Position numbers and translations under genes: made by a program. This document shows, piece by piece, positions 29,081-47,359 of a stretch of DNA of 64,000 bases (position 1 is its first letter; every line of letters begins with the position of its first letter). Source of the DNA: Bacillota bacterium. Lineage in GTDB: Bacteria > Bacillota_I > Bacilli_A > RF39 > UBA660. The stretch is from contig SVAK01000001.1 of NCBI GenBank assembly GCA_015059445.1, positions 25,951-89,950 of the forward strand, written 5' to 3'. The notes beneath the pieces are model-generated. The model was not told the DNA's origin, did not search any database, and worked only from the letters and a program-made list of their open reading frames with translations.

Positions 29081-29100
29081 GAAAAGGAGGAAACATTTAA

Positions 29101-29505
29101 ATGAAAGAATCATATTGGGGATACTGGCTAGTTATCCTAGGAGTATTTGTAGTAGTAATAATGCTTTTAATTCAAAATGTTACCTCTAATAATGCCGAAG
29201 ATAGTTATACGATAAAACAAATTAGTGAAGCTGCTTTAATTGATGCAGTAGATTATGCTTACTATAGAGAATATGGTGAGTTAAGAATCACTAGAGAAAA
29301 ATTTATTGAAAGTTTCTTAAGAAGATTTGCTGACACAGCTTCACTTACTACCAAATATAAAATTACTTTTACTGGTATTTATGAAGCTCCCCCTAAAGTT
29401 AGTGTAGAGGTGACAAGTCAAACAAATACTTACGTAGTAGCTACTGATACAGAAACATTTGATATGTCTAGTAGAGTAGATGCTATTTTAGAACAAAACG
29501 ATTAA
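29101..29505 (+). CDS. Pilin-like/TadE-like small protein (134 aa) with an N-terminal hydrophobic helix
   Basis: Strong RBS AAGGAGG. N-terminus MKESYWGYWLVILGVFVVVIMLL shares the MKE(A/S)..G plus hydrophobic-helix pattern with four downstream pilin-like genes. Confidence 0.4.
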   Translation: MKESYWGYWLVILGVFVVVIMLLIQNVTSNNAEDSYTIKQISEAALIDAVDYAYYREYGELRITREKFIESFLRRFADTASLTTKYKITFTGIYEAPPKVSVEVTSQTNTYVVATDTETFDMSSRVDAILEQND

Positions 29506-29519
29506 GGAGGAAGAATAAA

Positions 29520-30296
29520 ATGGGAAATGTAGTTACAACAATTAAAAGGTTTTTGGGAAACAAGAATACAGTGACAATTTTAGCGGTACTAGCAGGTATA
29601 ATAGTTTTATGGTATTTTTACACATATCGTGTAGAGCAGGCTATAACTACTATAAAAATACCATATGCAACACAAGCTATAGATACTGGAACAAAAATTG
29701 AAACTGATATTATTGAGTATAAAGAAATAACTTCTAGTACATTAAAGGATAGCGACATGATAACTGATGTATCTGCTTTAAAAGATAAATATGTTTGTGT
29801 TGGTACTAGTATACCTGCAAATGGCTTCTTTTATGAATCACAAGTTTGCGATAAAAAAGAATTACCAAATTCAGTTTTAGATGATATACCAGATGATTAT
29901 AAACCATTTACTTTAAGTGTTAATAATCAAATGACATATGCCAATTCCATTATGCCTGAAGATTATATTGATTTATACTTACAAGCAAAAGATGATGATG
30001 GTCAAATAATTTGGGGCCCATTAATTGAGAGTATTGAAGTTCTAGCTGTAAGAGATTCTAGTGGAAGAGATGTATTCTGGGATTCAGCAGCAGGAGATTC
30101 GGCTTACTTATTATTTGCAGTCCCAGATGAATATCATCAATTACTAAATGTTGCTGGATTAATAACTGCAAATAGCATTAAAATTATACCTGTTCCAAGA
30201 AGTGCATCTTATACAGCAAATCCTGGAGAAACTAAGATATCAAGCGAAGAATTATATTACTTTATAATGAGTAAAGCAGCAACATTAACAGAGTAA
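29520..30296 (+). CDS. CpaB/RcpC-like Flp pilus assembly protein
   Basis: N-terminal TM (TVTILAVLAGIIVLWYF) followed by a SAF-like beta-rich domain. The size (258 aa) and position before the ATPase match Tad loci. Confidence 0.55.
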   Translation: MGNVVTTIKRFLGNKNTVTILAVLAGIIVLWYFYTYRVEQAITTIKIPYATQAIDTGTKIETDIIEYKEITSSTLKDSDMITDVSALKDKYVCVGTSIPANGFFYESQVCDKKELPNSVLDDIPDDYKPFTLSVNNQMTYANSIMPEDYIDLYLQAKDDDGQIIWGPLIESIEVLAVRDSSGRDVFWDSAAGDSAYLLFAVPDEYHQLLNVAGLITANSIKIIPVPRSASYTANPGETKISSEELYYFIMSKAATLTE

Positions 30297-30315
30297 AAAA
30301 AGGAGTGGTCGAAAA

Positions 30316-31401
30316 GTGAATGATGCTATATTTTCACAAATAGATTTTGGACCTTTAAAAGAATTTTTAGATGATGATAATATTACGGACATATCCTATA
30401 GTAATAATGGTCAAATTCATTTAAAAACTTTAGATAAAGGTGTATATCCGGTCGAAAGACCAGACATAAATAATGCATTATTGGAAAAATTAGCTTTCCA
30501 ATGTTCTAATGTAATGGGAAAAACATTTAATATGGCTCATCCATTACTCGATGCTGAATCAGCAGAACTGCGTTTAAACTTTGTTCATGATTCCATTGCT
30601 ACAAATGGTATAGCCTGTACAATTAGAAAAACACCAGCCAAGATAAGATTAAATAAAGAAAAATTAATAAATGAACAATATGTTACTGAAGAATTATTGG
30701 ATTTCTTATTAACTTGTGTTGCTGGGCATTGTAATATCATTGTTAGTGGAGAAACAGGTTCTGGTAAAACAGAATTAGTTAAATATTTAGCTAGTCATAT
30801 AAAAGAAAATGAAAAAATAATTACTATTGAAGATACATTAGAATTACACTTAGATAGAATATTTCCTCATCGAGATATTGTAGCTATGAAAACTAATAAC
30901 ATCGCTGGGTATTCTGATGTATTGGTAGCATGTATGAGACAAAATCCAAGATGGATTTTACTATCCGAAGTTAGAAGCGATGAAGCTGTTACTGCAGCGC
31001 GTAATTCGATTTCATCAGGTCATAATATTTTATCAACAATTCACTCTGATAGAGCTAAAAATGTTCCAATGCGTATGTATAGTTTGCTGGAAACAAATCA
31101 AGATATAGAGCAATTTTTAAAATCAATTCATAGATATGTTCAACTAGCAGTACATGTTAAGGGATATATGAGTAAAGAATTAGGAAGATTTCAAAGAGAA
31201 ATTGTTGAAGTGTGTGAATTTTATGTGGATGATGATAATCAAGCAGGTTCAAATGTTATATATAAGAAAAATCTAGATGGAAAATTATTATTTAATGAGC
31301 CATCTAAATATTTAAAAGACTATTTAGGTTCACAAGGTGTTAATTTAAAAGAAAATATTTTTGGAGAAAACACAGAAGTAGAAGAAATAGATTCATTATA
31401 A
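30316..31401 (+). CDS. TadA/CpaF/VirB11-family secretion ATPase
   Basis: GTG start after AGGAGTGG. Walker A VSGETGSGKTE. ITIEDTLEL Asp box/Walker B region. HSD His box. 361 aa. Confidence 0.8.
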   Translation: MNDAIFSQIDFGPLKEFLDDDNITDISYSNNGQIHLKTLDKGVYPVERPDINNALLEKLAFQCSNVMGKTFNMAHPLLDAESAELRLNFVHDSIATNGIACTIRKTPAKIRLNKEKLINEQYVTEELLDFLLTCVAGHCNIIVSGETGSGKTELVKYLASHIKENEKIITIEDTLELHLDRIFPHRDIVAMKTNNIAGYSDVLVACMRQNPRWILLSEVRSDEAVTAARNSISSGHNILSTIHSDRAKNVPMRMYSLLETNQDIEQFLKSIHRYVQLAVHVKGYMSKELGRFQREIVEVCEFYVDDDNQAGSNVIYKKNLDGKLLFNEPSKYLKDYLGSQGVNLKENIFGENTEVEEIDSL

Positions 31402-31421
31402 AAAGGGAAGAAGGTGCATAA

Positions 31422-32327
31422 ATGAGAACATTAACAGAACTTTTAATATTACTAGCATTGGCGATTTTTGTTTTAATGTATCGTAAATCAAAAGATGGTA
31501 AAGTTTTAAAAAATATAGCTGATTCTGTTGGAGATGTTTATAATAAATATGCACCATATTCTTTTAAAATAGTTCGAGAAAAAGCAAAAGAATTAGGGCA
31601 AGAATATACTACACGCCAATATATAACCCAAGTGATTTTATTGGGTGGACTTGCTGGTATTATTGGTTACTTTTACTTTTATAGTATTGTTTGGGCTGTA
31701 ATATATGCTCTAGCAACTATAGCTTTTATACCATATTTAGCATATTTAAGATGTCAAAGAGTATATAGTGAATTTATTTTTGAGCAAATTCAAACTTATA
31801 CAACTAATGTTATAATGGAATTTAATACTACTCAAAGTTTTGTTAAAAGTTTAGAAGGTGTAAGAGATTCAGGGATTATTGAAGATCCTGTATTAAGTGA
31901 CATTAGTAAAATGATAGATATGTCTTATAAAAACGGTACTATAGATGAATCAATTGAATATTTTAATTCTAAATATCCTTATTATATGGTAAAAAATATG
32001 CATCAATTATTTTTGCAAATTACTAAAGAAGGTTCAAGAGATGCTGGAGAATCTTTGGAAAACATGTCAATGGATATCGATGCCTTAGTTGAAGGTGTAT
32101 ATCGTGATCAAATGGATCGAAAGAATTTCCATAAAAGATTCTTAACTTTTGCCCTTGTTTTATTTGCTTTAGTAATAGTTGTAGAGTTTATGTTAGGTAA
32201 AGATAACTATATTGAATTATTGGAAATGTGGTATGTTCAGTTAATCTTACATGTTATTATCATAATAAATATTTATTTCCTAATCACTGGTGAAAAATAT
32301 TACAATGAAGATGTGGGGGCTGAATAA
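31422..32327 (+). CDS. TadB-like (T2SS-F/GspF-domain) pilus assembly membrane protein
   Basis: N-terminal TM, a central helical T2SSF-like cytoplasmic domain and C-terminal TM helices. Sits immediately after the ATPase. Confidence 0.55.
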   Translation: MRTLTELLILLALAIFVLMYRKSKDGKVLKNIADSVGDVYNKYAPYSFKIVREKAKELGQEYTTRQYITQVILLGGLAGIIGYFYFYSIVWAVIYALATIAFIPYLAYLRCQRVYSEFIFEQIQTYTTNVIMEFNTTQSFVKSLEGVRDSGIIEDPVLSDISKMIDMSYKNGTIDESIEYFNSKYPYYMVKNMHQLFLQITKEGSRDAGESLENMSMDIDALVEGVYRDQMDRKNFHKRFLTFALVLFALVIVVEFMLGKDNYIELLEMWYVQLILHVIIIINIYFLITGEKYYNEDVGAE

Positions 32328-33115
32328 TGCAAATAGAAATTATTATAATAGCAATTCTTATATTTGTTGTAATGACCTATAATGGTCAACTTAGCATTAA
32401 AGATTTAATTAATGACAATTTCCATTTATTTCGCAAATTAAAAGAAGATGATTGGGACTTTTATGTCAGAGCTAAATATGGTGATAATGTTAAATCTGAT
32501 AGTATTTTTATTAAAAGAATTAGAAACGGTTTAGCAGTAATTGTTATTTGTCTATTCTTTTTTATTAAAGATTTGGACGCTCTTAAAGTATTAATCTCAG
32601 TTGTGGTAGGATATCTAATATTTAAAATAGATTATTATGATATTAAATCTTTCTATAAAAGACATGTATACCACATTGATAGTATGTTACCGCATTATTT
32701 AAAAAGTATTGAAATATTAATACAACATTATACTGTACCAGTAGCAATCGGCAAATCTATTCTAGATGCTCCGGAAATTTTTAAAGATGGGTTACAGGAA
32801 ATGATTAATGAAATTAATTCTGGTAATGATACAATTGAACCTTATATGAATTTTGCTAAAAAATATCCGGTAAGGGATTCAATGCGTATGATGCGTCTTT
32901 TATATCGTTTGAGCTTAGGAAGTCAAGATAGAAAACAAGAGCAGATGATAATGTTCTCTAGAACTATTTCTAATCTACAACAAAAAGCAAGAGAAACAAA
33001 ATATAAAAATCGTTTAGATAAGATGGAAAGTAAAACCATGAGTATGTTGATGTCAACAGGATTTGGAGTAATGGTTTTGCTAGTATTAGCAGTATTACAA
33101 ATGATGAATTTATAA
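32327..33115 (+). CDS. TadC-like (T2SS-F-domain) pilus assembly membrane protein
   Basis: TAATG overlap with the tadB-like gene. Same architecture: TM, helical domain, TM. It is the paralogue partner of the upstream gene. Confidence 0.5.
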   Translation: MQIEIIIIAILIFVVMTYNGQLSIKDLINDNFHLFRKLKEDDWDFYVRAKYGDNVKSDSIFIKRIRNGLAVIVICLFFFIKDLDALKVLISVVVGYLIFKIDYYDIKSFYKRHVYHIDSMLPHYLKSIEILIQHYTVPVAIGKSILDAPEIFKDGLQEMINEINSGNDTIEPYMNFAKKYPVRDSMRMMRLLYRLSLGSQDRKQEQMIMFSRTISNLQQKARETKYKNRLDKMESKTMSMLMSTGFGVMVLLVLAVLQMMNL

Positions 33116-33212
33116 AAGGTTTTAACTAGCCTTTTATTTTTTTGTCTTGCTTTGCGTATCAGTAAGAATGTTGTCAATAATCATCTAATAATAATTTTTT
33201 ATTTTAAAAATG

Positions 33213-33241
33213 TTGTTATTTTTAAAATAATTAGTTATAAT
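33213..33241 (+). promoter_or_regulatory. Sigma-A-like promoter TTGTTA-17-TATAAT upstream of the tandem pilin-like genes
   Basis: -35 at 33213-33218 and a perfect -10 at 33236-33241. RBS GGAGGAG (33258-33264) precedes the TTG start at 33271. A weak hairpin/T-run follows the tadC stop upstream. Confidence 0.55.
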
Positions 33242-33270
33242 AAAAATATATAATAGAGGAGGAGATTAGT

Positions 33271-33534
33271 TTGAAAGAAGCAACTGGAGAATTAAATATG
33301 ACAGTTATTACTATAGTAGCAATAGGAGCATTGGTAGCATTCTTCTATTTGGTTATTTGGCCAAATATCCAAGTTGGTATGACTTTATCGTCTGCTTGTA
33401 ATAGTGCAGGGACTGCAGCGATGAATCAAACATTAGATGATGGTTCTACCATAGTTTGTAATGGTGCAGATCCAAATGTTTGTACATATACACCAGCAGG
33501 TGGAGGCGCTGCTACAACAAGAACTTGTGACTAA
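33271..33534 (+). CDS. Short pilin-like protein 1 (87 aa) with a Cys-rich C-terminus
   Basis: TTG start. MKEATGELN leader then hydrophobic helix MTVITIVAIGALVAFFYLVIW. C-terminal CNSAG...CNGADPNVCTYTPAGGGAATTRTCD. Confidence 0.5.
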   Translation: MKEATGELNMTVITIVAIGALVAFFYLVIWPNIQVGMTLSSACNSAGTAAMNQTLDDGSTIVCNGADPNVCTYTPAGGGAATTRTCD

Positions 33535-33540
33535 CTAATT

Positions 33541-33774
33541 ATGAAAGAAGCAACAGGTGAACTTAATGCCACTGTTGTAGTAGTATTGGCTATTGGAGTT
33601 CTAATAGCCTTTTTTTACTACACTTTGTGGCCTTTAATGAAAGATAATTTCAATAAAAATTCACAATGTAGTAAGGCTATTTGTGAATCATGTAATACGG
33701 GGAATTGTGATTATGTGACTTGTCATCCTAAAAATGATCCAACTACTGAATTTGAATGTGTATATAAAGGTTAA
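33541..33774 (+). CDS. Short pilin-like protein 2 (77 aa), tandem paralogue
   Basis: Identical MKEATGELN leader, hydrophobic helix ATVVVVLAIGVLIAFFYY, and a six-Cys C-terminus (CSKAICESCNTGNCDYVTC...C). Confidence 0.5.
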   Translation: MKEATGELNATVVVVLAIGVLIAFFYYTLWPLMKDNFNKNSQCSKAICESCNTGNCDYVTCHPKNDPTTEFECVYKG

Positions 33775-33786
33775 GGAAGTGATTTA

Positions 33787-34305
33787 ATGAAAGAAGCTTT
33801 GGGTGGAATATCTTTGTTTCAAATAGTTATAGTTTTTATTCTGCTATTTACAGGTATTATTTGTCTAACAATTAATCAATCTAAAGCTTTTGCTGTTAAA
33901 GATGAAATTATTACTATAATCCAAAATCAAAATATTGATTCATTTAGTAATGGTTCCGATTATAAACTCACTGACGATACATCTCAAAATATAGCGGTTC
34001 GTTTAAAAGATGCGGGATATAGAACTACTGGTAATTGTCCAAGTGGTGAATGGATTGGTTATAGTAGAGATGGCGTTGAAGTGAGTAATAACGCAGCCTT
34101 TTGCATTAGAGTTAATAATGTATCTAGCACGTTTTATTCAGATTTAGAAAATAAATGCACTGCTGATAAATGTATAATTACATCAGAAGATTACCCTTCG
34201 ATGGTTTATTATGATATCGTCTTATTTTATGAGTTAGATATACCAATATTAAAATATTTTATGAATTTTAAAATATATGGTTCTACGAAAGTATTGTTTG
34301 GTTAG
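33787..34305 (+). CDS. Pseudopilin/TadE-like minor pilin candidate (172 aa)
   Basis: MKEALGG leader plus the hydrophobic helix ISLFQIVIVFILLFTGIICL. Shares a GY(R/D)T(T/V)G(N/K)C block with the next gene. Confidence 0.45.
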   Translation: MKEALGGISLFQIVIVFILLFTGIICLTINQSKAFAVKDEIITIIQNQNIDSFSNGSDYKLTDDTSQNIAVRLKDAGYRTTGNCPSGEWIGYSRDGVEVSNNAAFCIRVNNVSSTFYSDLENKCTADKCIITSEDYPSMVYYDIVLFYELDIPILKYFMNFKIYGSTKVLFG

Positions 34306-34312
34306 GTGATTT

Positions 34313-34807
34313 ATGAAACAGGCAGTAGCAACAACATCTATTTTTAAAGTAGTATTAGTTTTTACGCTTTTATTTTCGGCATTTCTAGCAGTGGCAATAA
34401 CTTATAATAGAGTTTATAAGTTAAAAAATGAAACAATAGCTATAGTTGAAAAATATGAAGGAATAAGTAGAAAATCTTTAACTATAATCAATAATTATTT
34501 ACAAAATAGCGGTTATGATACAGTAGGAAAATGTGAAAATGGAGAATATGGGATAACCGATTTATCTAGTGATACTTATGAACTTTCCCAAAATAATAAA
34601 GATTATTATTATTGTTTGAATTTTTTTTGTCAAGGTTCAAGCTGTAATGTAAATGATTCTTCTACACCAAATGGTAATCAAATATTTTATAATGTTAAAT
34701 TCTTTTTTAAATTTAACATTCCATTTATTGGAGAATTATTTACTTTTAATATAAATGGCAATACAAAAGGAATTAAGCTTTATTCTGAAACACAAAAATT
34801 ATCATAG
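34313..34807 (+). CDS. Pseudopilin/TadE-like minor pilin candidate (164 aa), paralogue of the preceding gene
   Basis: MKQAVATTSIFKVVLVFTLLF leader/helix. Conserved GYDTVGKCENGEYG block. Confidence 0.45.
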   Translation: MKQAVATTSIFKVVLVFTLLFSAFLAVAITYNRVYKLKNETIAIVEKYEGISRKSLTIINNYLQNSGYDTVGKCENGEYGITDLSSDTYELSQNNKDYYYCLNFFCQGSSCNVNDSSTPNGNQIFYNVKFFFKFNIPFIGELFTFNINGNTKGIKLYSETQKLS

Positions 34808-34821
34808 AAGGAGTATTATAA

Positions 34822-35787
34822 ATGAATGTAATAATATCAAATAAATATCAAACTTTATTAGGAACATTAAATATTGATGTTATTAAAACTATCAATGGAG
34901 AGTTTAGTGTTCAAGATTTAGTTAATCAATTTAGTAATTTTTACTATAATAAAATGGTTATTGATATAACAGCAATTAAAAATTATCAGAATGTTAATGT
35001 TATGCGCGAGTTATCAATGAATTTTGAAATGGATAAAGTAGTTGTTTTATTAGATGATTCACCTCAGGTGAATTCATCAATGTACTTATCGCAATTAGTG
35101 TCAGTTGGAATTTATAATTTTACTAGAAGTGTAGATGCTATTCCTTTCTTAATTGAACATTCTAATTCATATAAAGATGTTGCTAGTTATCAAAACTTTA
35201 ACGCGAATTCCGGAAATTTTGTGCCAACTAAAGAAGAAAGTACTCCAGTTAAATTAGAACAAAGAGTTATAGGATTTAAAAATGTCACGGAACATGCCGG
35301 GGCTACAACTCTAATATATATGCTAAAAAAACATCTTCAAGACACATATAAAGTCAAAGCCATAGAGGTAAATAATAATGACTTTGAATATTTTAATGAT
35401 AAAACATTAGAAAGCGCTGACTTTATGAATGTTTCTTATAAAATTTCTAATTTTTCTGATGTAGAAGTAATTTTGGTGGATTTAAATGATGCTCCAGAAA
35501 GTATTTGTACTGAAATAATTTATTTAATTGAACCAGGAATAATTAAATTAAACAAGTTAATTAGAACTGATAGAAAAATATTTGATAAATTAAGAAATAA
35601 GAAAATAGTATTAAATAAAAGTGTATTAAGTAATAATGATGTATCTGATTTTGAATATGAAAGTGGCAGTAAAGTGTTTTTTAATATACCTTGTTTAGAC
35701 GAAAAATTGGATAATAACAAAAAAATTGTTGAGTTTTTAATTGCTCTAGGTTTTTCTAGATTAAATAGCGAAACCAAAAGATGGTAA
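34822..35787 (+). CDS. TadZ/CpaE-like protein with a degenerate ParA/MinD ATPase domain
   Basis: N-terminal receiver-like alpha/beta segment (VVVLLDD). Central segment RVIGFKNVTEHAGATTLIYML sits where the deviant Walker A (KGGxGKT) would be but lacks the Lys-Thr. ILVDLND resembles a Walker B. Confidence 0.4.
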   Translation: MNVIISNKYQTLLGTLNIDVIKTINGEFSVQDLVNQFSNFYYNKMVIDITAIKNYQNVNVMRELSMNFEMDKVVVLLDDSPQVNSSMYLSQLVSVGIYNFTRSVDAIPFLIEHSNSYKDVASYQNFNANSGNFVPTKEESTPVKLEQRVIGFKNVTEHAGATTLIYMLKKHLQDTYKVKAIEVNNNDFEYFNDKTLESADFMNVSYKISNFSDVEVILVDLNDAPESICTEIIYLIEPGIIKLNKLIRTDRKIFDKLRNKKIVLNKSVLSNNDVSDFEYESGSKVFFNIPCLDEKLDNNKKIVEFLIALGFSRLNSETKRW

Positions 35788-35814: not shown

Positions 35815-35843
35815 TTGACATATATATATAAATTCGTTAGAAT
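35815..35843 (+). promoter_or_regulatory. Near-consensus sigma-A promoter TTGACA-17-TAGAAT at the boundary between the Tad-like and T4SS-like modules
   Basis: -35 TTGACA at 35815-35820 and -10 TAGAAT at 35838-35843. The RBS and ATG 35870 lie downstream. Confidence 0.6.
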
Positions 35844-35869: not shown

Positions 35870-36259
35870 ATGTTAATAGCAGCAGGTTTATGTGAAGAAA
35901 CAGCAAATGTTTGGTATTTATTAGGATTAGTAGTAAATCTTATAAGAATAATTATTCCACTAATTTTAATTATATTGGGAATGTTAGATTTAGGAAAGGC
36001 TGTAGTAAACAGTGATGAAAAAGCTGTATCAAAAGCAGTAGGGACTTTAGCAAAAAGATTTGTAGGAGCTTTAATAATGTTCTTTATCCCAACAATTATT
36101 AGTGCAATCTTTAGTGCCCTTACTACAATAAATCTAACTAGTGGTGATGCTAATGTATGTATGCAATGTTTAACAAATGCAACTGGTGATACTCCGGTAG
36201 GTTCTCAAAATCAAAGTTGTAAAGCTTATGCTGATGCATTAAATGGAACTGGAAACTAA
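35870..36259 (+). CDS. Small two-helix membrane hairpin protein (129 aa), candidate major structural subunit (VirB2-analogue?)
   Basis: Two TM helices flank an amphipathic loop DLGKAVVNSDEKAVSKAVGTLAKRF. The C-terminal tail carries CMQC...SCK. The gene is bracketed by its own strong promoter and terminator. Confidence 0.5.
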   Translation: MLIAAGLCEETANVWYLLGLVVNLIRIIIPLILIILGMLDLGKAVVNSDEKAVSKAVGTLAKRFVGALIMFFIPTIISAIFSALTTINLTSGDANVCMQCLTNATGDTPVGSQNQSCKAYADALNGTGN

Positions 36260-36285
36260 AAAATCACATAAAGTGATTTTTTTTA
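36258..36285 (+). terminator. Rho-independent terminator right after the 129-aa hairpin gene
   Basis: Stem AAATCAC (36261-36267), loop ATAAA, stem GTGATTT (36273-36279), then a run of eight T. Confidence 0.65.
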
Positions 36286-36355
36286 TTTTATACTTTTAAA
36301 TTGTCTCGGAAAATGTTAAAATTGTATTATAAGTTATATAGATGGGATGTTGGGT

Positions 36356-37414
36356 ATGAAAAAACTTTTTTTGGCTTTTATAATTTGTTTATTTAGTATT
36401 CCGATTTTTACGCATGCAATAGCTGAATATGAATATGCTGATATTAAAAAATGTTACTTGAAAAATGTAGAGTCTACTAATATAGTAAATGATTCTTACA
36501 CAAATAATAAAAGTGCTTGTTTTCCTGCATTTGATAGAGGAGCAAATCAGATTGTTGATAAAGAACGTTTGGAAAACGAAAGTGCGTGTGATGACGGCTT
36601 TGAACTTTATCAAATAAAACATCCATATACAGACGAGCTTGGCAATGAATGGGAGGCTGTAGGTTATGGGTGTAGAAAAAAAACAGGTGAAGTATTTATA
36701 AATGAAACAATGTATTGTAGATACGATTTAAATAGTTATAAACTTATGTTAGTATACAAAAATAACAAATTTAGTATAAAAACTACAACTGTACGCCCTG
36801 ATGTAGAAATAGATTATATGCCTTCATATGATGATGCAACTTGGTCTTTAAGTTACACTAATTATTCTTTTAGTAATACTAATAAAGTCTTAGATGGTGT
36901 ATTATGGGGGTGCCCAAATTATGTTGAGCCTGTATTAGATAGTAATGGTAATGTTATTGAATATTCTTTTTATGATAAAAAAAATGATAACGAAAATGGA
37001 TATTCGATATATACAAAGGATGACACTGATGATAGTTTTTATGCTAGTCTTTGTTCTACAGATAATAAATCAACCACTCAAGTTAGATTAGCATTTAAAA
37101 TGGCTGGCTATGTAATACAAATAATAAAGTGGTTAATACCTATTCTGATTGTAGTTTTAGGTATGGTGGATTTTGGTCAAGCAGTTATATCTAATGACGA
37201 AAAAGCCTTAAGTAAATCTTTAGCATCTTTGACAAAAAGATTAATAGCAGGAGTAGTAGTGTTTTTTATACCTTCTATAATAATGGGAATATTAAGTGTA
37301 ATTGAAATTACAAAAGGAATTGAAAAAGAATCAAATTCAAATTTTGGGGCTTGTACAAAATGTTTATTTGATCCATTTGATAGTTGCGATATTCCCGAAG
37401 AATATAAAAAATAA
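36356..37414 (+). CDS. Secreted Cys/Tyr-rich protein (about 352 aa) anchored by a C-terminal two-helix hairpin, paralogous to 35870..36259
   Basis: Signal peptide MKKLFLAFIICLFSIPIFTHA. C-terminal IIKWLIPILIVVLGMVDFGQAVISNDEKALSKSLASLTKRLIAGVVVFFIPSII. CTKC near the C-terminus. I prefer ATG 36356 to the track's 36347. Confidence 0.55.
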   Translation: MKKLFLAFIICLFSIPIFTHAIAEYEYADIKKCYLKNVESTNIVNDSYTNNKSACFPAFDRGANQIVDKERLENESACDDGFELYQIKHPYTDELGNEWEAVGYGCRKKTGEVFINETMYCRYDLNSYKLMLVYKNNKFSIKTTTVRPDVEIDYMPSYDDATWSLSYTNYSFSNTNKVLDGVLWGCPNYVEPVLDSNGNVIEYSFYDKKNDNENGYSIYTKDDTDDSFYASLCSTDNKSTTQVRLAFKMAGYVIQIIKWLIPILIVVLGMVDFGQAVISNDEKALSKSLASLTKRLIAGVVVFFIPSIIMGILSVIEITKGIEKESNSNFGACTKCLFDPFDSCDIPEEYKK

Positions 37415-37455
37415 TGCTTAGTTAATGGTTTAATTAGATTAAAGGAGATATTTTA

Positions 37456-38847
37456 ATGAAAAGATATATAATTTTAATTGTTTTTATTTTTATGATGCTT
37501 ATGCCAACTTATACTGAAGCAAAAGAATACCAAGAATTAGTTTGTATGTATGTGGTAGCTTCAGATACAACTGGAGAACATGCGATTCTTATTGAGCAGT
37601 TATCAGATGGAAGCAAAACGGTTTATACAAGAAAGCCAAATACTTATAAAGATGATAGTGATAAAACTTACAATTTTATAAGAGACAAGTGGGATACTAT
37701 TGGTGAGATTATGGGAGGAAATAACTCAAAATATGATATTAAAGACTGGGAAAATGGTTGGGTTGAAACTCCAAATATAAACTGGTATTCTGAAATTCAA
37801 CCACTGGGAACTTATGATTACAGAAATGGCGATTTTTGTGATGCGAGCAGTGGAACGGATTATCTTTGTGAAGGTTATATAAAAAAAATTACAGCTTCTG
37901 AATTTGATTTGGCTGATTATTGTGGCGACGATGACATGAATTTATATAGATTTCATGATACTGCAAGTGAGGAAGTTGGATCTCCTTATTGGGATTATAC
38001 TACTTCTGCATTCTATGCAACTCTTACTAAGAGACATTTAGTTTTTAGTGAAGATATTTTGTCTTTGGAAACAAATGAAGGTTTTATAGAATATGTATTT
38101 GCAGCCTCTTCATTCACTATCGGAAAACATGATGGAAGTGGTAACTTAGATCCGGGGTATCAAGGTGCCATAGATAATATAGATACTATAATTCCTTATG
38201 ATGGTGATTATGAGGAATATAAAAATATAAAGTATAATACATACTGGAATATGTACTGTCATTATGGTTCGCCATTAAATATGAAAACGGTTGTGGAATT
38301 GTATGTTAATAATAGTACTCTATTATTATATAACCCGAACTCTGAAACAAATTATCCTTATTCAGCTTTTAATCACGATGATGTAAAAAATATGGAATCT
38401 TGTCCTCCAGTCTTATATGGAGTGGGAGCTATAGTAGATGGTATCCAACATTATACTTATTATTTGAAGGAACCTGCTTTATGGTCTGGATATTCTTTGC
38501 TTTATTCAGGTAGTGGATTTGTACCAGGCGAAGAGAATGTTTTGATCCAAGAGCAAAGTTGTGAGTCTCTGTTAGGCAATCCTCAGACTAATGGAACACC
38601 AGCTTATTACTTGCAATTTGTTCTAAATTTGATTAAATATGCTGCCATCATATTGCTAGTAGTATTAAGTATTTTTGATTTTGTCGGCGCCGTTTCATCA
38701 CATGATCAAGAAATACTTTCTAAGTGTGTCAAAAAAGTCGGTTTTAGACTTATTTGGTGTGTAGCTATATTCTTTATTCCAACCATACTAAATTATATAT
38801 TTACATTTGTAGAAATATATAGTCCTAGTACATGCGGAATTAAATAA
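37456..38847 (+). CDS. Secreted protein (463 aa) with a C-terminal two-helix hairpin module, third paralogue
   Basis: Signal peptide MKRYIILIVFIFMMLMPTYTEA. C-terminal LIKYAAIILLVVLSIFDFVGAVSSHDQEILSKCVKKVGFRLIWCVAIFFIPTIL. Confidence 0.55.
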   Translation: MKRYIILIVFIFMMLMPTYTEAKEYQELVCMYVVASDTTGEHAILIEQLSDGSKTVYTRKPNTYKDDSDKTYNFIRDKWDTIGEIMGGNNSKYDIKDWENGWVETPNINWYSEIQPLGTYDYRNGDFCDASSGTDYLCEGYIKKITASEFDLADYCGDDDMNLYRFHDTASEEVGSPYWDYTTSAFYATLTKRHLVFSEDILSLETNEGFIEYVFAASSFTIGKHDGSGNLDPGYQGAIDNIDTIIPYDGDYEEYKNIKYNTYWNMYCHYGSPLNMKTVVELYVNNSTLLLYNPNSETNYPYSAFNHDDVKNMESCPPVLYGVGAIVDGIQHYTYYLKEPALWSGYSLLYSGSGFVPGEENVLIQEQSCESLLGNPQTNGTPAYYLQFVLNLIKYAAIILLVVLSIFDFVGAVSSHDQEILSKCVKKVGFRLIWCVAIFFIPTILNYIFTFVEIYSPSTCGIK

Positions 38848-38865: not shown

Positions 38866-41361
38866 ATGAATATTTTATCAATTTTTTCAATTTTAGCTGG
38901 ACCCTTTTCTGGATTAGAAGGCAGTGAAATAATAATCAATTTTTTACTTTTAATTGATTCGAAAATTTATGAATTATTTGGTTATTTATATGGTTTATAT
39001 ATATCAATAGCTAGTGCGAAAATATTTAATGTCGAAGTTTTTGATTATTTTGTTAAAAATATTTATATTATTTTTGGGGTAGTAGCTTTATTTATTCTTG
39101 CTTTCTTTCTATTACAAAATGTTGTAAATCCAGAAGGAAATGGCACCAAAGATGCAAAAGATTTTATTATGCGTTTTGTCTTGGCAATTGGATTAACATT
39201 TTTGATTCCATTCTTTTTTGATTTTCTTTATGACTTTCAATATTCTATTTTAAAATACGGCACTATACCCAAGATTACTCTAAGCGAAGCTAGAAATACT
39301 ATTGTAGAAGTGCCAATATATTATAAAAATGAACTTGGTCAATATTTTTGCGAAGATCTAACAACTTTTTATGATGAAAAAACTAATCCATGCAAAATCT
39401 ATTCTACTGTCGAAAAAGTAGATAAAGGTGAAGCAGTACTTCGCGCATACGGTTACGGTATAGCATATGATGTATTTAGTGGTTTTCTCTATCCATCTGG
39501 GCTAGTTGCAGACGATGAACTCGTAATAAATGCTAGTGACTATTTTACAGCTGAGAGAGGTGCCTCATGGGGAATTTGGGGATGTATTGCTGGAGCTGGG
39601 CTAGTTGCAGTTGGAGCTGTAGTTACTTATTTTACCGGAGGTCTAGGGGCTGTTGGAGGTTTTATTACTGCTAAAACAGGTACCGCAATGGTGTTAGGGT
39701 GTCTTGGCCTCGGTGCCTTAGGGGGAGTGGCCAATGCTGTGGGTGGCGTAATTGATGCCGAAAAATATCCATGGACTAGTATAGTACAAAGTATGGAATA
39801 TATGGGAGATTATTCTTTAGTACCAGCACTAGATGGTGCTATTGTTACCGGCCATATAGAATATTCACCTATTATTTCTACTGTTGCTGGTATCATTTTA
39901 GTGTATTTAATATTTAGTTTTTGTCTTGATTTGGGTGTAAGAGCTGCTAAATTAGTTTTATATCAACTATTAGCACCATTAAGTTTTATTATAAGCGCAA
40001 TTCCATCAAAGAAAGATTTAATGTCCAAATGGTTTAAAGCTGTTTTTACAATTTGGATGGAGGTTTTTATAAGAATAGTTTGTGTTTGTGGCGTAGCAAT
40101 GCTAATCCGAAATTTAAATTTGGGTGAGTTTGAGAGTTTAGGCGGCTTAGCTAAAGCTATTATTGTTTTAGGTTTAGTAACATTTGCTAAACAGTTTCCT
40201 AGATTGTTGGGAGATATACTTGGTTTTGATTCAGGAAACTTGAAATTAGGTATAAAAGAAAAATTAGCTGAAGGTGGTGCATTTACTGCTGGAGCATTAG
40301 TTGGAGCTGGAGCGACAGCACTTTTAAGAAATACTGTAGCAGGAGCAAAAGGTGTCAAAAATAAGTTCTTGGAAAACAAAAAAGCATTAAATGATGCTGG
40401 TAAAACAGGTTGGAAGGCTAATTTGGCTGCTGCTTGGCAGTCTAAAGGAGCAGCTGGTAAAATGCTTGGATCTATGGCTGCTGGAACGGTATCCGGAGCT
40501 TTCAGAGGTGGTAAAGCTGGATGGTCTGCCAAAAATTGGGGTGATATGACATCAGCAGCTGGTAAAGGCGCAAAAGGTGCTACTGATGCAAGAATAAAGC
40601 GAGCAAGTTACAAAGCTAGCCACGGAGGTACTATTGGTGGAGCTTTTGAAGGACATTTCCATGACATGCTTCAAGGTGGAGCAAAATGGCTTGGAATTGA
40701 AGAAGACTACACTGTGCTTCAAGCCGAGCAAAATAGCGCTGATTCATTATTAGCATCAGTAAAAAAAATTGGGGATATAAGCGAAGATTATATTGTTAAA
40801 CATCAGAGTGAATTTTTTGCGAAATTAACTGAGGATCAAGAAAATGCTATTGCAGAACTTAGAAAGAAAATTGCAAATACTAGTCCTCACCGTAAAGATA
40901 AGATACAAAAATATGAACAACAAATAGCTCAAATTCAAGCATCAACAAGATTAGATTATTTAGAAGCGGCTATTAAAGAAGCTGAAAAGTCTGGAGATGC
41001 AATAGCAATTGCTGAGGCAACTAATAGATATAAAAAAGCTTTTAAAGATATTAAAGATGGATTTGCATCTTCAGTATTTTCACATGAGGGAGCTAGTAAG
41101 GAAGCAATTGCTATTCAAGCAGAATTGGATAGTATCAATAATAAATTGCGTGAAGAAGTCAATTCTCAAGTTGTGTCATTGTTAAGATCAGGTAGAGCAA
41201 ATGAAGCTGGTAAAACTATTGTTGGTGCACAAGAAGGAGATGTAAGAGCTGATAATGCTGCCGATTTCTTGAAACAATTAAAGTCTGCTGCTGAAGTAAC
41301 TACTGCTGAAATAAGTGCTGAACGTTCTAAACTTGAAAGAAGACAAAAAAAAGATAAATAA
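38866..41361 (+). CDS. VirB6-like polytopic membrane protein of Gram-positive T4SS (TcpH/PrgH/ConG-like), 831 aa
   Basis: Multiple TM helices including a Gly/Ala-rich membrane segment (GIWGCIAGAGLVAVGAVVTYFTGGLGAVGGF...). A roughly 350-aa C-terminal Ala/Lys/Gly-rich coiled-coil domain. Its size and its position before the VirB3/VirB4-like genes fit the family. Confidence 0.55.
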   Translation: MNILSIFSILAGPFSGLEGSEIIINFLLLIDSKIYELFGYLYGLYISIASAKIFNVEVFDYFVKNIYIIFGVVALFILAFFLLQNVVNPEGNGTKDAKDFIMRFVLAIGLTFLIPFFFDFLYDFQYSILKYGTIPKITLSEARNTIVEVPIYYKNELGQYFCEDLTTFYDEKTNPCKIYSTVEKVDKGEAVLRAYGYGIAYDVFSGFLYPSGLVADDELVINASDYFTAERGASWGIWGCIAGAGLVAVGAVVTYFTGGLGAVGGFITAKTGTAMVLGCLGLGALGGVANAVGGVIDAEKYPWTSIVQSMEYMGDYSLVPALDGAIVTGHIEYSPIISTVAGIILVYLIFSFCLDLGVRAAKLVLYQLLAPLSFIISAIPSKKDLMSKWFKAVFTIWMEVFIRIVCVCGVAMLIRNLNLGEFESLGGLAKAIIVLGLVTFAKQFPRLLGDILGFDSGNLKLGIKEKLAEGGAFTAGALVGAGATALLRNTVAGAKGVKNKFLENKKALNDAGKTGWKANLAAAWQSKGAAGKMLGSMAAGTVSGAFRGGKAGWSAKNWGDMTSAAGKGAKGATDARIKRASYKASHGGTIGGAFEGHFHDMLQGGAKWLGIEEDYTVLQAEQNSADSLLASVKKIGDISEDYIVKHQSEFFAKLTEDQENAIAELRKKIANTSPHRKDKIQKYEQQIAQIQASTRLDYLEAAIKEAEKSGDAIAIAEATNRYKKAFKDIKDGFASSVFSHEGASKEAIAIQAELDSINNKLREEVNSQVVSLLRSGRANEAGKTIVGAQEGDVRADNAADFLKQLKSAAEVTTAEISAERSKLERRQKKDK

Positions 41362-44079: not shown

Positions 44080-46506
44080 ATGGAAAAAGAACGTGTTATA
44101 AAAAAAGCTGAAAAATTAGGGATAACCACGTCCAGCAGCAATAGTTTAGAAAAATTAGAAGAAATTGCTCATCAATTAGGATTAGAAAATTTTAACCCAT
44201 TAAGTGATATTAAAATGTTGGAAGATGTTTTGGATGCCGAATTAGCTAATAGTACAGAAGAATTTTTAGATACCGAAGAGATGCCACAAGAGGAATATTT
44301 GGAAGAAGTCCCATCATCAGTTTCTGATTACAGAGATGAACTACCACAAAGTACAGAAGATGAAAAAACTAACGATGACCCAGAAAAAACGAAAAATGAA
44401 AAACAACCTGATGATTTAAAAAAAGAAGAACAAGAGAAAAAAAAGGAAGAATCTCCAGATTCCAAAAAAAATGATCCATCAGAGGAAGTTAATAAAAAGC
44501 CAGATGGTCAGCAGAATAAAAATATAAAAGATAACAATAATTTAAAAAAGGATCAAACCAAAGATGCTTTATCAAAACCAAAGCGTCAAAATCAACAATC
44601 CCAAAATTTTGGGAAGCAAAAAAATAGTTTATTACCAGGCGAAAAAGTTACAAAAGCGAAACCTAATAATTTTTTTGATAGTTTAAAAAATAAATTTTTA
44701 AAACCTAATGCAGGTAAAGGTAAAGGGTTAAAAGATTTAGGAAAATCAATTGCAAACATAGGTAAAACAATCTTTTCATTTTTGAAAGCTCATCCTATGG
44801 TTTTAATCGTAATAGTTTTTATTTTGTTATTTATAATTATTTTGTTTTTTGTCTTATTTTTTTTCATGGATTCAGATGGAAACTCATCAGCTAGCAGTTC
44901 AAATAATAGTTCAGTAGGTTATTATGATTCTAAGTGTAACTTTAATGATGTTAAAGTCATTTATCAAGAGCAGAGAAACGGAGAATCACAATCGGATTAT
45001 TTAGATGATTTTGTAAAAAAAATTGCTTATAATAATGTAAATTCTGGTACTTTAAGTGATGATCAGCTAAAAGCTTATTTAATAATGCTTAAAACCAATG
45101 TTTTAAGTCTGGGCACATATAATAGTGATGACAATACTATAACATGTAATGAAAGTGTTCAGGAAATTGATAACCCGGATCAAGGTATAGAAGAAAGAAT
45201 AAATGATATATATACAAGTGTTAGTGAACAATTATATCTATCTAAAGATTTTACTGGCACTTTTAAAGACTTAACTGAAAATAATGCAGTTATTATAGAT
45301 TTCGCCACTTTATCAAGCAGTACAGGAAATTATGAAGAAGTTTTAAAGGAAATGTATTCATCAGATAATTATGAAATTTATAATTTGGAAGATAATTGTA
45401 CATTTTATACTGTAACTGAAAATGATGCTTATTGGTGGCCTATTGGTAGCGCAAGTCCTACAAATGGGAATATTTATGGAGGAGAACCAGTTACTATTAA
45501 CGTATCATCTAAATATGGTATGAGAGATCACCCAATTGATAATGTTCGAAAAATGCATAATGGTATTGATATTAGTGATAAAAAAGATAATTGTGGAGAA
45601 GTAATTATAGCAGCTAAAAGTGGTACTGTAACAGGTACGAAGTTTGAAAAAAATGGTTTTGGTTATTATGTTGTAATAGACCATGGCGATGGAATAAAGA
45701 CAAGATATGCCCACATGCAAGCTGATTCTTTTGCTGTATCAGTAGGGGATAAAGTTGTACAAGGTCAAAAAATAGGTTTAGTTGGGACTACTGGTAAATC
45801 TACAGGATGCCACTTGCACTTTGAAGTAGTTGTAAATGGTAAAAGAGTGGATCCATTAAATTATGTAAGCACTGATAATCCTAGAGGAGTTAATAAATAT
45901 TCATTAGCACCGGTTAATGATGCCGTAACCGGAAAAGACGATGTTAAACAAGAAATATGTAGAGTATTTTTAAAAAGTGGTTTTTCTGAGAATTCTGTAG
46001 CAGGTATGTTAGTTAACATTCAAGTAGAAGGAAGCTTTAAAACCAATAACTTAGAAGGATGTTATGAAGAAAATCGCTGTTGTAAAAATGGCACATATGG
46101 ATTTTGTAAACACCCAGAAATAACAGGATTTGGTAGTGACGAATTATATACAAGTGGAGTTGATTCTGGTGCTTACCCAAGGGACAAATTTATTAGTGAC
46201 AGAGCCGGTTACGGATTAATTCAATGGACATCAAAAGGAAGAAAAACTGGTTTATATGATTATGTTAAAAGCCAAAATAAATCAATTGGATCATTAAGTG
46301 GTCAGTTGGGATATTTATTAGAAGAATTAAAAGAATATCCTAAAACTTATAAATATGTTACAGGTAATTATTCAGCTTATGATATTGCAAATAATTTTTG
46401 TTTAGACTTTGAAAGACCATCCAATAAGGAAGTAGGATGTCCAAGAAGAGCAAATAATTATTCTAGTACAATGTTGACTTACGTACAAAATGGATGTAGC
46501 GATTAG
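44080..46506 (+). CDS. Membrane-anchored cell-wall hydrolase of the T4SS (PrgK/CwlT-like): M23 peptidase plus a lysozyme-like C-terminal domain
   Basis: About 165 aa of highly charged KE/D-rich N-terminus, a TM (MVLIVIVFILLFIIILFFVLFFF), then an M23/LytM domain (HNGIDIS, TRYAHMQ, GCHLHFEV). The C-terminal domain carries a GYGLIQWT motif like phage-tail/lysozyme-like muramidases, plus Cys clusters. Confidence 0.7.
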   Translation: MEKERVIKKAEKLGITTSSSNSLEKLEEIAHQLGLENFNPLSDIKMLEDVLDAELANSTEEFLDTEEMPQEEYLEEVPSSVSDYRDELPQSTEDEKTNDDPEKTKNEKQPDDLKKEEQEKKKEESPDSKKNDPSEEVNKKPDGQQNKNIKDNNNLKKDQTKDALSKPKRQNQQSQNFGKQKNSLLPGEKVTKAKPNNFFDSLKNKFLKPNAGKGKGLKDLGKSIANIGKTIFSFLKAHPMVLIVIVFILLFIIILFFVLFFFMDSDGNSSASSSNNSSVGYYDSKCNFNDVKVIYQEQRNGESQSDYLDDFVKKIAYNNVNSGTLSDDQLKAYLIMLKTNVLSLGTYNSDDNTITCNESVQEIDNPDQGIEERINDIYTSVSEQLYLSKDFTGTFKDLTENNAVIIDFATLSSSTGNYEEVLKEMYSSDNYEIYNLEDNCTFYTVTENDAYWWPIGSASPTNGNIYGGEPVTINVSSKYGMRDHPIDNVRKMHNGIDISDKKDNCGEVIIAAKSGTVTGTKFEKNGFGYYVVIDHGDGIKTRYAHMQADSFAVSVGDKVVQGQKIGLVGTTGKSTGCHLHFEVVVNGKRVDPLNYVSTDNPRGVNKYSLAPVNDAVTGKDDVKQEICRVFLKSGFSENSVAGMLVNIQVEGSFKTNNLEGCYEENRCCKNGTYGFCKHPEITGFGSDELYTSGVDSGAYPRDKFISDRAGYGLIQWTSKGRKTGLYDYVKSQNKSIGSLSGQLGYLLEELKEYPKTYKYVTGNYSAYDIANNFCLDFERPSNKEVGCPRRANNYSSTMLTYVQNGCSD

Positions 46507-46518
46507 GAGAATAGATAT

Positions 46519-47298
46519 ATGAATAATTCAAAAAAGAAAATTTTAATAGGAATAGCAGTAATATTATTATTAGTTACATTAATTGTTATCTTTTTAGGAA
46601 ATCGCGAAAAAGAACCTATTGATAATAAAAATAATGGTACCCCAGTGGCAGAAATATCTAAAACTTTTTCTAAAGTAAATGATTATAAAGAATATTTTAG
46701 TATTGAAAATACAATAAGTCAAACTTTAGCACTTACTGAAGCGTTCTTTGCTAAAGAAATATACACTAATAATGATAGTACAACCAGATACTATTTTGTG
46801 AATGGATGTATCACTGAAGTATTAATGGATGATGAAACTACAAATTATAATAAATCAGTTAATTATTTATTAATTGTGGGAATGCGTAATAATAATTATG
46901 AAATTGTAAATTTAAGTAATAATATTTCAGATTTATTAGATTATGCGAAAAAATATGATGTTAAACATCAGGAAATTAATACTGGTCAAAGACTTGCAAA
47001 TGGTATTGATAATATTCAAAATATTCTTATAACGTATATAGAATACTTTAAAGAGATGTTGTTTTTTGATCCAGAATTAGCATATAATATGTTAACTGCG
47101 GATACAAAAAATAAATATTTAAATTATGCTGATTTTTATAATCAAATACCAGATGTTTATAATAACTTATCTTCTGCTATATTTGCTTATAGTAAGAAAG
47201 AAAAAGAAGATATTATAGAATATTATATAAAAGACGATAGTCAAAATGATATAAAGATTATTGAGTATGATATTATGAACTTTAAAATTAGTTATTAA
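46519..47298 (+). CDS. Membrane-anchored extracytoplasmic protein, VirB8-like candidate (PrgL/TcpC/TraM position)
   Basis: N-terminal TM (ILIGIAVILLLVTLIVIFL) followed by about 230 aa of soluble domain. The call rests on gene order between the hydrolase and the coupling protein. Confidence 0.3.
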   Translation: MNNSKKKILIGIAVILLLVTLIVIFLGNREKEPIDNKNNGTPVAEISKTFSKVNDYKEYFSIENTISQTLALTEAFFAKEIYTNNDSTTRYYFVNGCITEVLMDDETTNYNKSVNYLLIVGMRNNNYEIVNLSNNISDLLDYAKKYDVKHQEINTGQRLANGIDNIQNILITYIEYFKEMLFFDPELAYNMLTADTKNKYLNYADFYNQIPDVYNNLSSAIFAYSKKEKEDIIEYYIKDDSQNDIKIIEYDIMNFKISY

Positions 47299-47306
47299 AA
47301 TATTTT

Positions 47307-47335
47307 TTGATATTAAGTATTATTTATAGTATAAT
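47307..47335 (+). promoter_or_regulatory. Consensus sigma-A promoter TTGATA-17-TATAAT upstream of the coupling-protein gene
   Basis: -35 at 47307-47312 and -10 TATAAT at 47330-47335. RBS AGGAGGAG and GTG 47360 follow. Confidence 0.6.
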
Positions 47336-47359
47336 AAGACGTGAATTAGGAGGAGTAAC

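Follow-up and report, generated by a model that had tools for sequence, protein, structure and literature searches.

We describe here three adjacent genes on the + strand of a 64 000 nt window (the whole stretch of DNA analysed, from contig SVAK01000001.1) of an uncultured gut Bacilli lineage; judged from sequence, they are paralogues of one VirB2-like (Pfam T4SS_pilin-like) family of helical-hairpin membrane proteins. The genes stand between a Tad-like cluster and the genes of a type IV secretion system (T4SS), and they encode one short protein and two long ones in which the hairpin is preceded by a secreted ectodomain. In the explanation that we favour, at somewhat less than an even chance, the short protein would be the bulk subunit of a VirB2-like assembly, and the extended paralogues would join it at the VirB6/VirB3/VirB4 machine with their ectodomains on the cell-distal side, serving as heads or wall cutters.

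The three proteins (129, 355 and 463 aa) have in common a C-terminal module of ∼100 aa. A preliminary description, made from the DNA alone, had proposed three paralogues built around such a module; the three open reading frames (ORFs) were found exactly where it had placed them, and the modules are homologous, with composition-adjusted BLASTP E-values of 3e-22 (129 versus 355 aa), 6e-13 (129 versus 463 aa) and 1e-13 (355 versus 463 aa). Pairwise identity of the window paralogues is 31–37%, and a trimmed three-way alignment retains the residues C, V, I, L, D, AV, D, SK, R, FFIP, I, I, P and the last C. A profile search gave 494 relatives, mostly of 112–140 aa. In 104 short homologues we observed invariant residues at C8, W15, I27, P30, L33, G37, M38, D40, L41, G42, A44, V45, L60, R63, A67, F71, F72, P74, F81, C97, C100 and C117. 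Similarity of purely compositional (hydrophobic) nature, named in the preliminary description as the result that would undo its claim, is ruled out by the composition-adjusted E-values together with these invariant polar and Cys positions. The consensus motif as originally written fits the 129-aa and 355-aa proteins in full, but the copy in the 463-aa protein has diverged from it (IP to AI, LGM to LSI, DEKA to DQEI and KR to FR).

The short form (35870..36259; module subfamily 11) is the first gene of the array. Its N-terminal tail carries the invariant Cys8 and is followed by helix 1 (∼12–47), a basic loop, helix 2 (∼50–85) and a C-terminal tail with an invariant CxxC (97, 100) and C117. The short form has no signal peptide; its ORF starts 7 residues ahead of the invariant Cys and cannot be extended. 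A lipoprotein signal was considered and rejected by inspection: 'MLIAAGLC' would be too short for one, and its residue −1 is L where G/A/S would be needed.

For the middle paralogue the longest ORF (355 aa; 36347-37414) probably overstates the protein slightly: the real start is likely M4 at position 36356, giving 352 aa, because a 99% identical database protein (P0122) has this length. A Sec signal peptide (36356..36418; MKKLFLAFIICLFSIPIFTHA followed by I, cleavage between THA and I) is succeeded by an orphan ectodomain of ∼211 aa, rich in Tyr, Asp and Asn and with 6 Cys (36419..37051), and by the hairpin module (37052..37414), which belongs to subfamily 8 and has the pattern ...SLC...IKWLIPILIVVLGMVDFG.AVISNDEKALSK...FFIPSI...FGACTKCLFDP..C. 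The last paralogue (463 aa; 37456-38847) is built in the same way, from a Sec signal peptide (37456..37521; MKRYIILIVFIFMMLMPTYTEA followed by K, cleavage between TEA and K), a strictly orphan ectodomain of ∼343 aa, rich in Tyr and Asp and again with 6 Cys (37522..38550), and a diverged module (38551..38847) of subfamily 1, which is typically that of the final array gene before VirB6. Both signal peptides are typical, in agreement with what had been proposed. The ectodomains had been called rich in Cys, Tyr and Asp; the enrichment in Tyr (10% versus 4.9%) and Asp (9–10% versus 5.8%) was evident, while for Cys it was only mild (2.9% and 1.7% versus a background of 1.4%).

The predicted fold of the module is a two-helix membrane hairpin with a short basic loop. 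An AlphaFold2 (AF2) model of the short form, made from a 104-sequence alignment, has helices at residues 12–47 and 50–85 with pLDDT (predicted local distance difference test) values of 76–89, and in the model of the 352-aa form the hairpin helices occupy residues 241–278 and 282–315 (pLDDT 80–86). PF18895 (T4SS_pilin, VirB2-like) was the sole family that aligned with the module end to end; for the short form the match covers profile positions 5–71 of 71 with 16.5 bits and E 0.009, under the gathering cut-off of 26.6 bits. Matches with E ≤ 0.01 were found for 94 of the 104 homologues (best 1e-6), and several relatives with 52–63% identity carry a precomputed PF18895 assignment. The two long forms produced no match to PF18895 in the Pfam scan. 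As membership of the window proteins in PF18895 is probable but below threshold, we filed them as a VirB2-like, PF18895-related family; with this family match and the AF2 hairpin, the earlier characterization of the module as a pilin-type membrane hairpin is upheld.

Hydropathy segments agree with the hairpin, and charges are distributed unevenly along the chain (N-tail −2, loop +2, C-tail −2): the loop is basic (D-x-G-K-A-V...K...K...KR), and the tails are net negative and bear the invariant Cys. The charge distribution and the Sec signal peptides of the long forms argue that both tails and all invariant Cys are outside, with the basic loop inside. This is the topology of VirB2 and TraA pilins. 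C-terminal extensions after the hairpin, which could be expected if both tails face outward, were seen, in place of N-terminal ones, in three related proteins with at least 120 extra residues (120–260 aa; L030:10470-12077, L055:3702-5213 and L017:5615-6679).

Other family searches with the module gave little. Among solved structures its profile produced chance matches to Shaker channels only. NCBIfam had no meaningful family for it; the Mycoplasma 'pilin-like' model matched two of the 104 homologues at E 0.03. Module proteins matched neither PF12666 nor PF12648 (VirB3/PrgI/TcpE models) and, in Pfam and NCBIfam, none of the Tad families (Flp, TadE/F, TadZ, TadB/C, RcpC), so that the neighbourhood is their only link to Tad.

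To place the window array among its relatives we used one pattern-based scan of species-representative genomes with 10-kb flanks, which gave 348 relatives and 80 loci that were kept; counts of loci given here are phylogenetically non-independent. With the window counted, a hidden Markov model of the module identified 212 module genes among the ORFs of 81 loci. The arrays have from one to eight module genes (two or more in 65 loci). By size, 110 of the proteins are short, 27 have 25–99 extra N-terminal residues and 75 have at least 100; all members of the last class begin with a signal-peptide-like segment. Clustering of modules produced subfamilies that track gene position: the 129-aa protein falls into the 'first' subfamily, present in 80 loci, the 355-aa protein into a 'middle' one and the 463-aa protein into a 'last' one. 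The order 11-8-1 (first-middle-last) was observed in 11 loci, along with variants, the full order being short form, type 2, type 3 and VirB6. The proposed pattern of a short form accompanied by domain-extended paralogues thus recurs in the 80 related loci, where both the subfamilies and the order of the genes are conserved.

The loci come nearly all from contigs labelled as metagenome-assembled genomes (MAGs) of uncultured gut Bacilli, 'Tenericutes' or 'Mycoplasma sp.', with a few other labels, and the database twin is labelled Firmicutes bacterium. Seven loci (L046, L048, L067, L069, L070, L072 and L074) have Muribaculaceae, Agathobacter or Merdimonas MAG labels, yet their gene content is that of the Bacilli loci; these contigs are probably mis-binned rather than a product of transfer.

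Middle and last subfamilies include 'bare' members of 131–147 aa, consisting of a signal peptide and a hairpin, as well as loaded members of up to 607 aa. The presence of both kinds in the same subfamilies indicates that ectodomains were acquired by insertion, at a site that has the signal peptide on one side and a conserved '(L/F)C' motif next to the membrane on the other; it is there that the variable ectodomains are located. One could consider the N-extensions to be very long propeptides, removed to yield mature short pilins, with the '(L/F)C' motif as a possible mark of the processing site; VirB2, TraA and TrbC pilins are indeed made with long leaders. We regard this as very improbable, given that some extensions are as long as 500 aa, that folded enzymes are found among them, and that bare members of the same subfamilies have ordinary signal peptides.

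The ectodomains themselves are strikingly diverse. For the ectodomain of the 463-aa protein we observed no match other than to itself, either in a word-indexed search of 5.8 billion proteins or when 1.84 billion cluster representatives were searched exhaustively with phmmer, and no Pfam domain. Homologues of the 355-aa protein cover at most 41% of it (the module and the juxtamembrane part), with no homologue of the ectodomain in this set and no BLAST neighbour for it among 102 N-extensions. These 102 extensions were divided by BLAST into 73 clusters. Structure prediction, suggested earlier as a way to characterize the ectodomains, was not informative for the 352-aa form: from a 25-row alignment AF2 gave a pLDDT of 52 overall and <50 over most of the ectodomain. 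Comparison of orthologous pairs from matching arrays made the contrast with the module apparent. Between loci L035 and L047 the identity of ectodomain versus module was 32% versus 91% at array position 2, 22% versus 90% at position 3 and 12% versus 79% at position 4, and between L012 and L015 it was 25% versus 89% at position 2.

Unlike these hypervariable ectodomains, the enzyme-bearing ones are conserved at 65–82% identity. Pfam identified an NlpC/P60 domain (L035:5429-6403), a combination of M15_4 and Amidase_3 (L059:12603-14450) and Peptidase_C39_2 (L057:13292-14425 and two others); all mapped enzyme domains are carried by module subfamily 4, in the last positions of larger arrays. One further, unmapped relative has a VgrG3-like_C domain (a C-terminal, hydrolase-type domain). 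In neither window long form did Pfam recognise a hydrolase domain (SLT, CHAP/NlpC, LytM or amidase). Hydrolase domains occur on hairpin paralogues in other array types, and the window has a separate protein with M23 and lysozyme domains. The ectodomain encoded at L005:2008-3378 contains a stretch, 'HFHGFGD', that by eye resembles an alpha/beta-hydrolase or esterase; it had no Pfam match.

The combination of a conserved module with highly variable or enzymatic domains, VgrG3-like_C among them, is also what could be seen if the long forms were polymorphic cargo or effectors, comparable with evolved VgrG proteins or polymorphic toxins, with the hairpin as a recognition or loading module and the N-terminal domains released as toxins that act on the surface of target bacteria or enter them; the locus also has a VirD4 coupling protein. 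We consider such a role quite improbable. The ectodomains have Sec signal peptides, therefore their export should be independent of VirD4; the window array has no small genes of immunity type between its members; and the members with enzymes are the conserved ones, not the hypervariable ones. The same signal peptides make imprecise the earlier statement that ectodomains are delivered through the hairpin, as export is accounted for by Sec. Most simply, the hairpin is the anchor and assembly module of the long forms.

Extended forms are tightly associated with the T4SS. Genes for VirB6, PrgI or VirB4 are located downstream of the array in the window and in 23 of the 51 related loci with downstream flank. 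N-extended forms were present in 22 of these 23 loci versus one of the 28 loci in which 5.5 kb or more of downstream sequence contained no such T4SS genes (Fisher p 3e-12, uncorrected for phylogeny). The preliminary description had asked whether the module always occurs together with VirB4/VirB6. At the level of neighbourhood this is so for N-extended forms and not so for short ones: in 28 of the 51 loci only short forms follow the Tad-like cluster and are themselves followed by housekeeping genes, with no adjacent T4SS, and the short form may therefore serve the Tad machine or a T4SS encoded elsewhere.

The Tad-like cluster is syntenic, directly upstream of the short gene, in 42 of the 56 loci with enough flank. 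In 19 of the 40 loci with both flanks it is accompanied by one or two short forms and then by UvrA or other housekeeping genes, with no T4SS genes within 5.5–10 kb. A recurrent locus type (L033, L034, L039, L048, L050, L063, L068, L073, L077 and L078, positions ∼9580–10330) consists of the Tad-like cluster, exactly two short hairpin genes (∼116 and ∼111 aa), an unrelated minus-strand gene of 490–510 aa and UvrA; loci of the L033 type had no T4SS genes within 7–10 kb. Also, the module was absent from all 72 556 PLSDB plasmids, 1859 of which have VirB4 homologues. It was absent from IMG/VR viral contigs too, so that the possibility of the module being a standard part of plasmid or phage systems was rejected.

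These observations, the IMG/VR result aside, speak for the short form being a part of the Tad-like (type IVc pilus-like) machine, with the N-extended paralogues arising from a secondary recruitment of the hairpin by the T4SS. Such a history is improbable in our estimate. Five loci show the opposite arrangement, a short form and a T4SS, with the upstream 6.5 kb or more free of Tad genes; in Pfam, the family to which the proteins are related is one of T4SS pilins; and the short form has its own promoter, apart from the Tad genes. No Tad system is known to have such a hairpin protein.

The promoter in question is a sigma-70-like sequence, TTGACA-17-TAGAAT (11 of 12 consensus positions; 35815..35843, + strand), located in the 82-bp gap before the short gene and the best promoter match in the region. 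Directly after the gene there is a terminator-like hairpin (36258..36290, + strand) with a 10-bp stem followed by a U-rich run (−8.1 kcal/mol, z −4.45). Both signals recur in related loci: in the 77 nt before the gene, 51% of first genes versus 3% of other array genes had a promoter match of 11/12 or better, and the 48 nt after the stop codon had a fold z < −2 for 57% versus 29%. The short gene thus has signals typical of high expression, and promoter and hairpin together are what one would expect if a major subunit were made in abundance and the partners encoded after it in smaller amounts.

This expression style is one of the points to be weighed when the hairpin is considered as nothing but a membrane anchor or docking module, tethering adhesins and hydrolases near the T4SS channel in the manner of the membrane-anchored VirB1-like hydrolases of Gram-positive bacteria, with the short form as a small channel subunit and no polymer at all. 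Gram-positive T4SSs are generally pilus-less (PMC12857230); in relatives the module carries peptidoglycan hydrolase domains; the module is tightly linked to VirB6/VirB3/VirB4; and no solved pilin was found by sequence. All this fits an anchor, which we hold to be possible, if doubtful. The strong private promoter and attenuator-like hairpin of the short gene are in the style of a major subunit, the best family match is a pilin family (PF18895), the window already has a separate PrgI/VirB3-like protein and a separate hydrolase, and the invariant pattern of extracellular Cys and the loop motif are conserved beyond the needs of a simple anchor.

Returning to the VirB2-like assembly, we would picture it as follows. 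As in VirB2/TraA pilins, the inserted hairpin would expose its two tails on the outer side of the membrane and keep its basic loop on the inner side. The abundant short protein would form the core as a major-type subunit, and the extended paralogues would co-assemble with it through the same hairpin at the VirB6/VirB3/VirB4 machine; the product might be a short pilus or a wall-spanning conduit, with ectodomains displayed on its outside or tip. Hypervariable ectodomains, those of the window included, could then act as target-recognition or adhesion heads, and the conserved enzymatic ectodomains of other arrays as peptidoglycan cutters. The external tails may be stapled together by a disulfide that joins the invariant Cys ahead of helix 1 to the last Cys, which follows helix 2; such a staple would be a counterpart, without a covalent link of the backbone, to the head-to-tail cyclisation of TrbC/VirB2, which the conserved Cys pattern would replace at most by analogy.

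Several facts count against this picture. Any filament, like the roles of major and tip subunits, is hypothetical. The score of the short form to PF18895 is under the cut-off, and weak matches to unrelated membrane families, e.g. DUF996, were seen as well. The short form is without the leader typical of VirB2, TraA and TrbC, although members of the other subfamilies have signal peptides, followed directly by the hairpin in mid-sized forms and by ectodomain and hairpin in long ones. Short forms with no adjacent T4SS make up more than half of the loci with downstream flank, and the locus counts come from a single scan of related genomes.

The closest described system is that of the VirB2-like pilin arrays of Patescibacteria/CPR (candidate phyla radiation) T4SSs, e.g. 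in Southlakia epibionticum ML1 and Nanosynbacter TM7x. In Patescibacteria, arrays of 2–11 VirB2-like genes are located beside chromosomal, mostly relaxase-less T4SSs related to MPF-FATA (MPF, mating pair formation) with PrgI and TrsD (PMC12102498), and one such array is essential in Southlakia (PMC10633639). The similarities are numerous. Here, too, divergent hairpin genes are in tandem (31–37% identity, versus a mean of 25% there) beside a chromosomal monoderm-type T4SS with PrgI/VirB3, VirB4, VirB6 and a separate TrsD-like VirB4 N-domain, an arrangement reported as typical there, and the window shows no recognisable relaxase; a machine of the type IV-pilus class is encoded in the genome as well, and the same Pfam model, PF18895, matches the pilin-like proteins, for the window short form below its cut-off. 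The likeness is one of gene arrangement and of this Pfam model. Differences are in the host, a Bacilli lineage in our case, in the presence of a VirD4 coupling protein and a VirB1-like hydrolase, in the adjoining Tad-like cluster and, above all, in the large N-terminal ectodomains (up to ∼500 aa) of many array members, including peptidoglycan hydrolases. Fusions of N-terminal ectodomains, hydrolases among them, are not mentioned in PMC12102498, PMC10633639 or PMC12857230.

With VirB2, TrbC and TraA the window family shares a small two-helix hairpin with a basic loop, both ends predicted to be outside, and a gene in a T4SS cluster. Unlike them, it has no detectable sequence similarity to solved pilins and no leader on the short form; the envelope is monoderm, with VirB5, VirB7, VirB9 and VirB10 not seen; and the known pilins are not fused to ectodomains. 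Fusion of a pilin module to a functional domain is familiar from modular type IV pilins such as PilB of Streptococcus sanguinis. There, as here, a conserved polymerisation or anchor module is combined with variable domains and exists beside a plain major subunit; however, fold and machine are unrelated (the N-terminal helix of type IV pilins versus a VirB2-like hairpin and a T4SS), and the added domain is C-terminal there and N-terminal here. Arrays of VirB2 paralogues also occur in Bartonella, Anaplasma and Rickettsia, where they are regarded as a source of surface variation (cited in PMC12102498).

Gram-positive T4SSs have membrane-anchored VirB1-like hydrolases, e.g. PrgK, TraG of pIP501 and TcpG (PMC12857230). 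The subfamily-4 relatives, encoded within a T4SS cluster, similarly have NlpC/P60, M15, amidase and C39-like domains exposed at the outer membrane face; in contrast, they are anchored through a pilin-like hairpin at the C-terminus instead of a transmembrane helix at the N-terminus, and in the window the long forms have no hydrolase domain and a separate M23 and lysozyme protein exists. The CDS13/CDS15 proteins of Mycoplasma integrative and conjugative elements (ICEs; NCBIfam 'Mbov_0395 family pilin-like conjugal transfer protein') also are small, have two transmembrane segments and are encoded just upstream of the VirB6-like/VirB4 genes of a Mollicutes/Bacilli-type T4SS, and the PrgI and VirB4 pieces of the window match the Mycoplasma VirB4 model. 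Yet, with only the two weak matches noted above, the relation of the hairpins is unsupported at sequence level.

According to a review of December 2025, Gram-positive T4SSs have no VirB2-type pilins, Patescibacteria being the exception (PMC12857230), and the survey of Patescibacteria leaves the origin of the pilin arrays open, as MPF-FATA systems are thought to lack them (PMC12102498). The family of loci described here bears on both points, since arrays of up to eight PF18895-like hairpin genes occur in it beside an MPF-FATA-like T4SS in Bacilli. It uses the hairpin as a scaffold for interchangeable ectodomains, some of which are clearly cell-wall hydrolases. Two questions become testable: whether a monoderm T4SS can build a pilus-like structure, and how such a machine recognises and penetrates the wall of a target cell. 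The hypervariable ectodomains are natural candidates for determinants of host or partner specificity in a widespread uncultured gut lineage. One could speculate further that genome-reduced gut Bacilli use a modular VirB2-type pilus or wall-spanning conduit, made of a plain bulk hairpin and paralogues bearing exchangeable, fast-diversifying receptor-binding heads or enzymes that cut peptidoglycan, together with the adjoining Tad-like pilus as an apparatus to attach to other bacteria and breach them, and that this would be the Firmicutes counterpart, possibly even the evolutionary source, of the essential arrays of epibiotic Patescibacteria; so extended a scenario appears to us unlikely, if worth stating.

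All genes from 24.7 to 49.6 kb of the window are on the + strand, in the order Tad-like cluster, hairpin array, T4SS, and the locus is flanked by housekeeping genes (ProRS, FTHFS and UvrB on one side, NusG on the other). No families of relaxases or integrases were recognised among the scanned window ORFs of at least 100 aa; since several window ORFs have no family assignment, absence of a relaxase is not proven. We characterized the locus, from an uncultured gut Bacilli lineage, as a chromosomal Tad-like cluster plus a T4SS for which the window has no identified relaxase.

The Tad-like cluster (24687..35787; 11 genes, three of them recognised by Pfam) was delineated by Pfam and sequence. Listed as its members are proteins of 240 and 1224 aa, DUF5411, RcpC/CpaB, a CpaF/TadA ATPase, two polytopic proteins, two small pilin-like proteins with an MKEATGEL start and a hydrophobic helix, and proteins of 172, 164 and 321 aa. 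The small proteins and those of 172, 164 and 321 aa had no Pfam match, and labels such as 'Flp / TadE-F / TadZ-like' should be taken as tentative for them. The scanned window ORFs included no recognisable prepilin peptidase.

Downstream of the array, the hydrolase, an unassigned protein of 259 aa and a VirD4 coupling protein of the CD1115 family together occupy 44080..49582 (family models). The hydrolase (808 aa; 44080-46506) has Peptidase_M23 (residues 491–592) and Phage_lysozyme2 (623–790) domains, preceded by a long N-terminal region in which one segment is hydrophobic, and presumably serves the window T4SS as its VirB1-like wall hydrolase.

Between the array and the hydrolase gene are a VirB6-like polytopic membrane protein (831 aa; 38866..41361), assigned by position and membrane character with weak family matches only and having a homologue in 20 of the 51 related loci with downstream sequence, a PrgI/VirB3-like ORF (105 aa; 41382-41699; PF12666 and PF12648 matches with E 2.5e-5 and 1.1e-4), a VirB4 N-domain/TrsD-like ORF (187 aa; 41674-42237) and a VirB4 ATPase ORF (594 aa; 42237-44021), the last two identified by family models. 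The window VirB4 has ∼28% identity to the VirB4 of the 1859 Gram-positive plasmids. VirB3, VirB4 N-domain and VirB4 ATPase each have an ORF of their own, with slight overlaps, and the three jointly tile the single Mycoplasma ICE VirB4 model, the first two covering positions 2–96 and 99–276 of its 894 positions. C-terminal to its membrane part, the very long VirB6-like protein, an 'extended VirB6', has a helical region of ∼350 aa rich in Ala, Lys and Glu, with a weak ApoLp-III match at residues 597–735.

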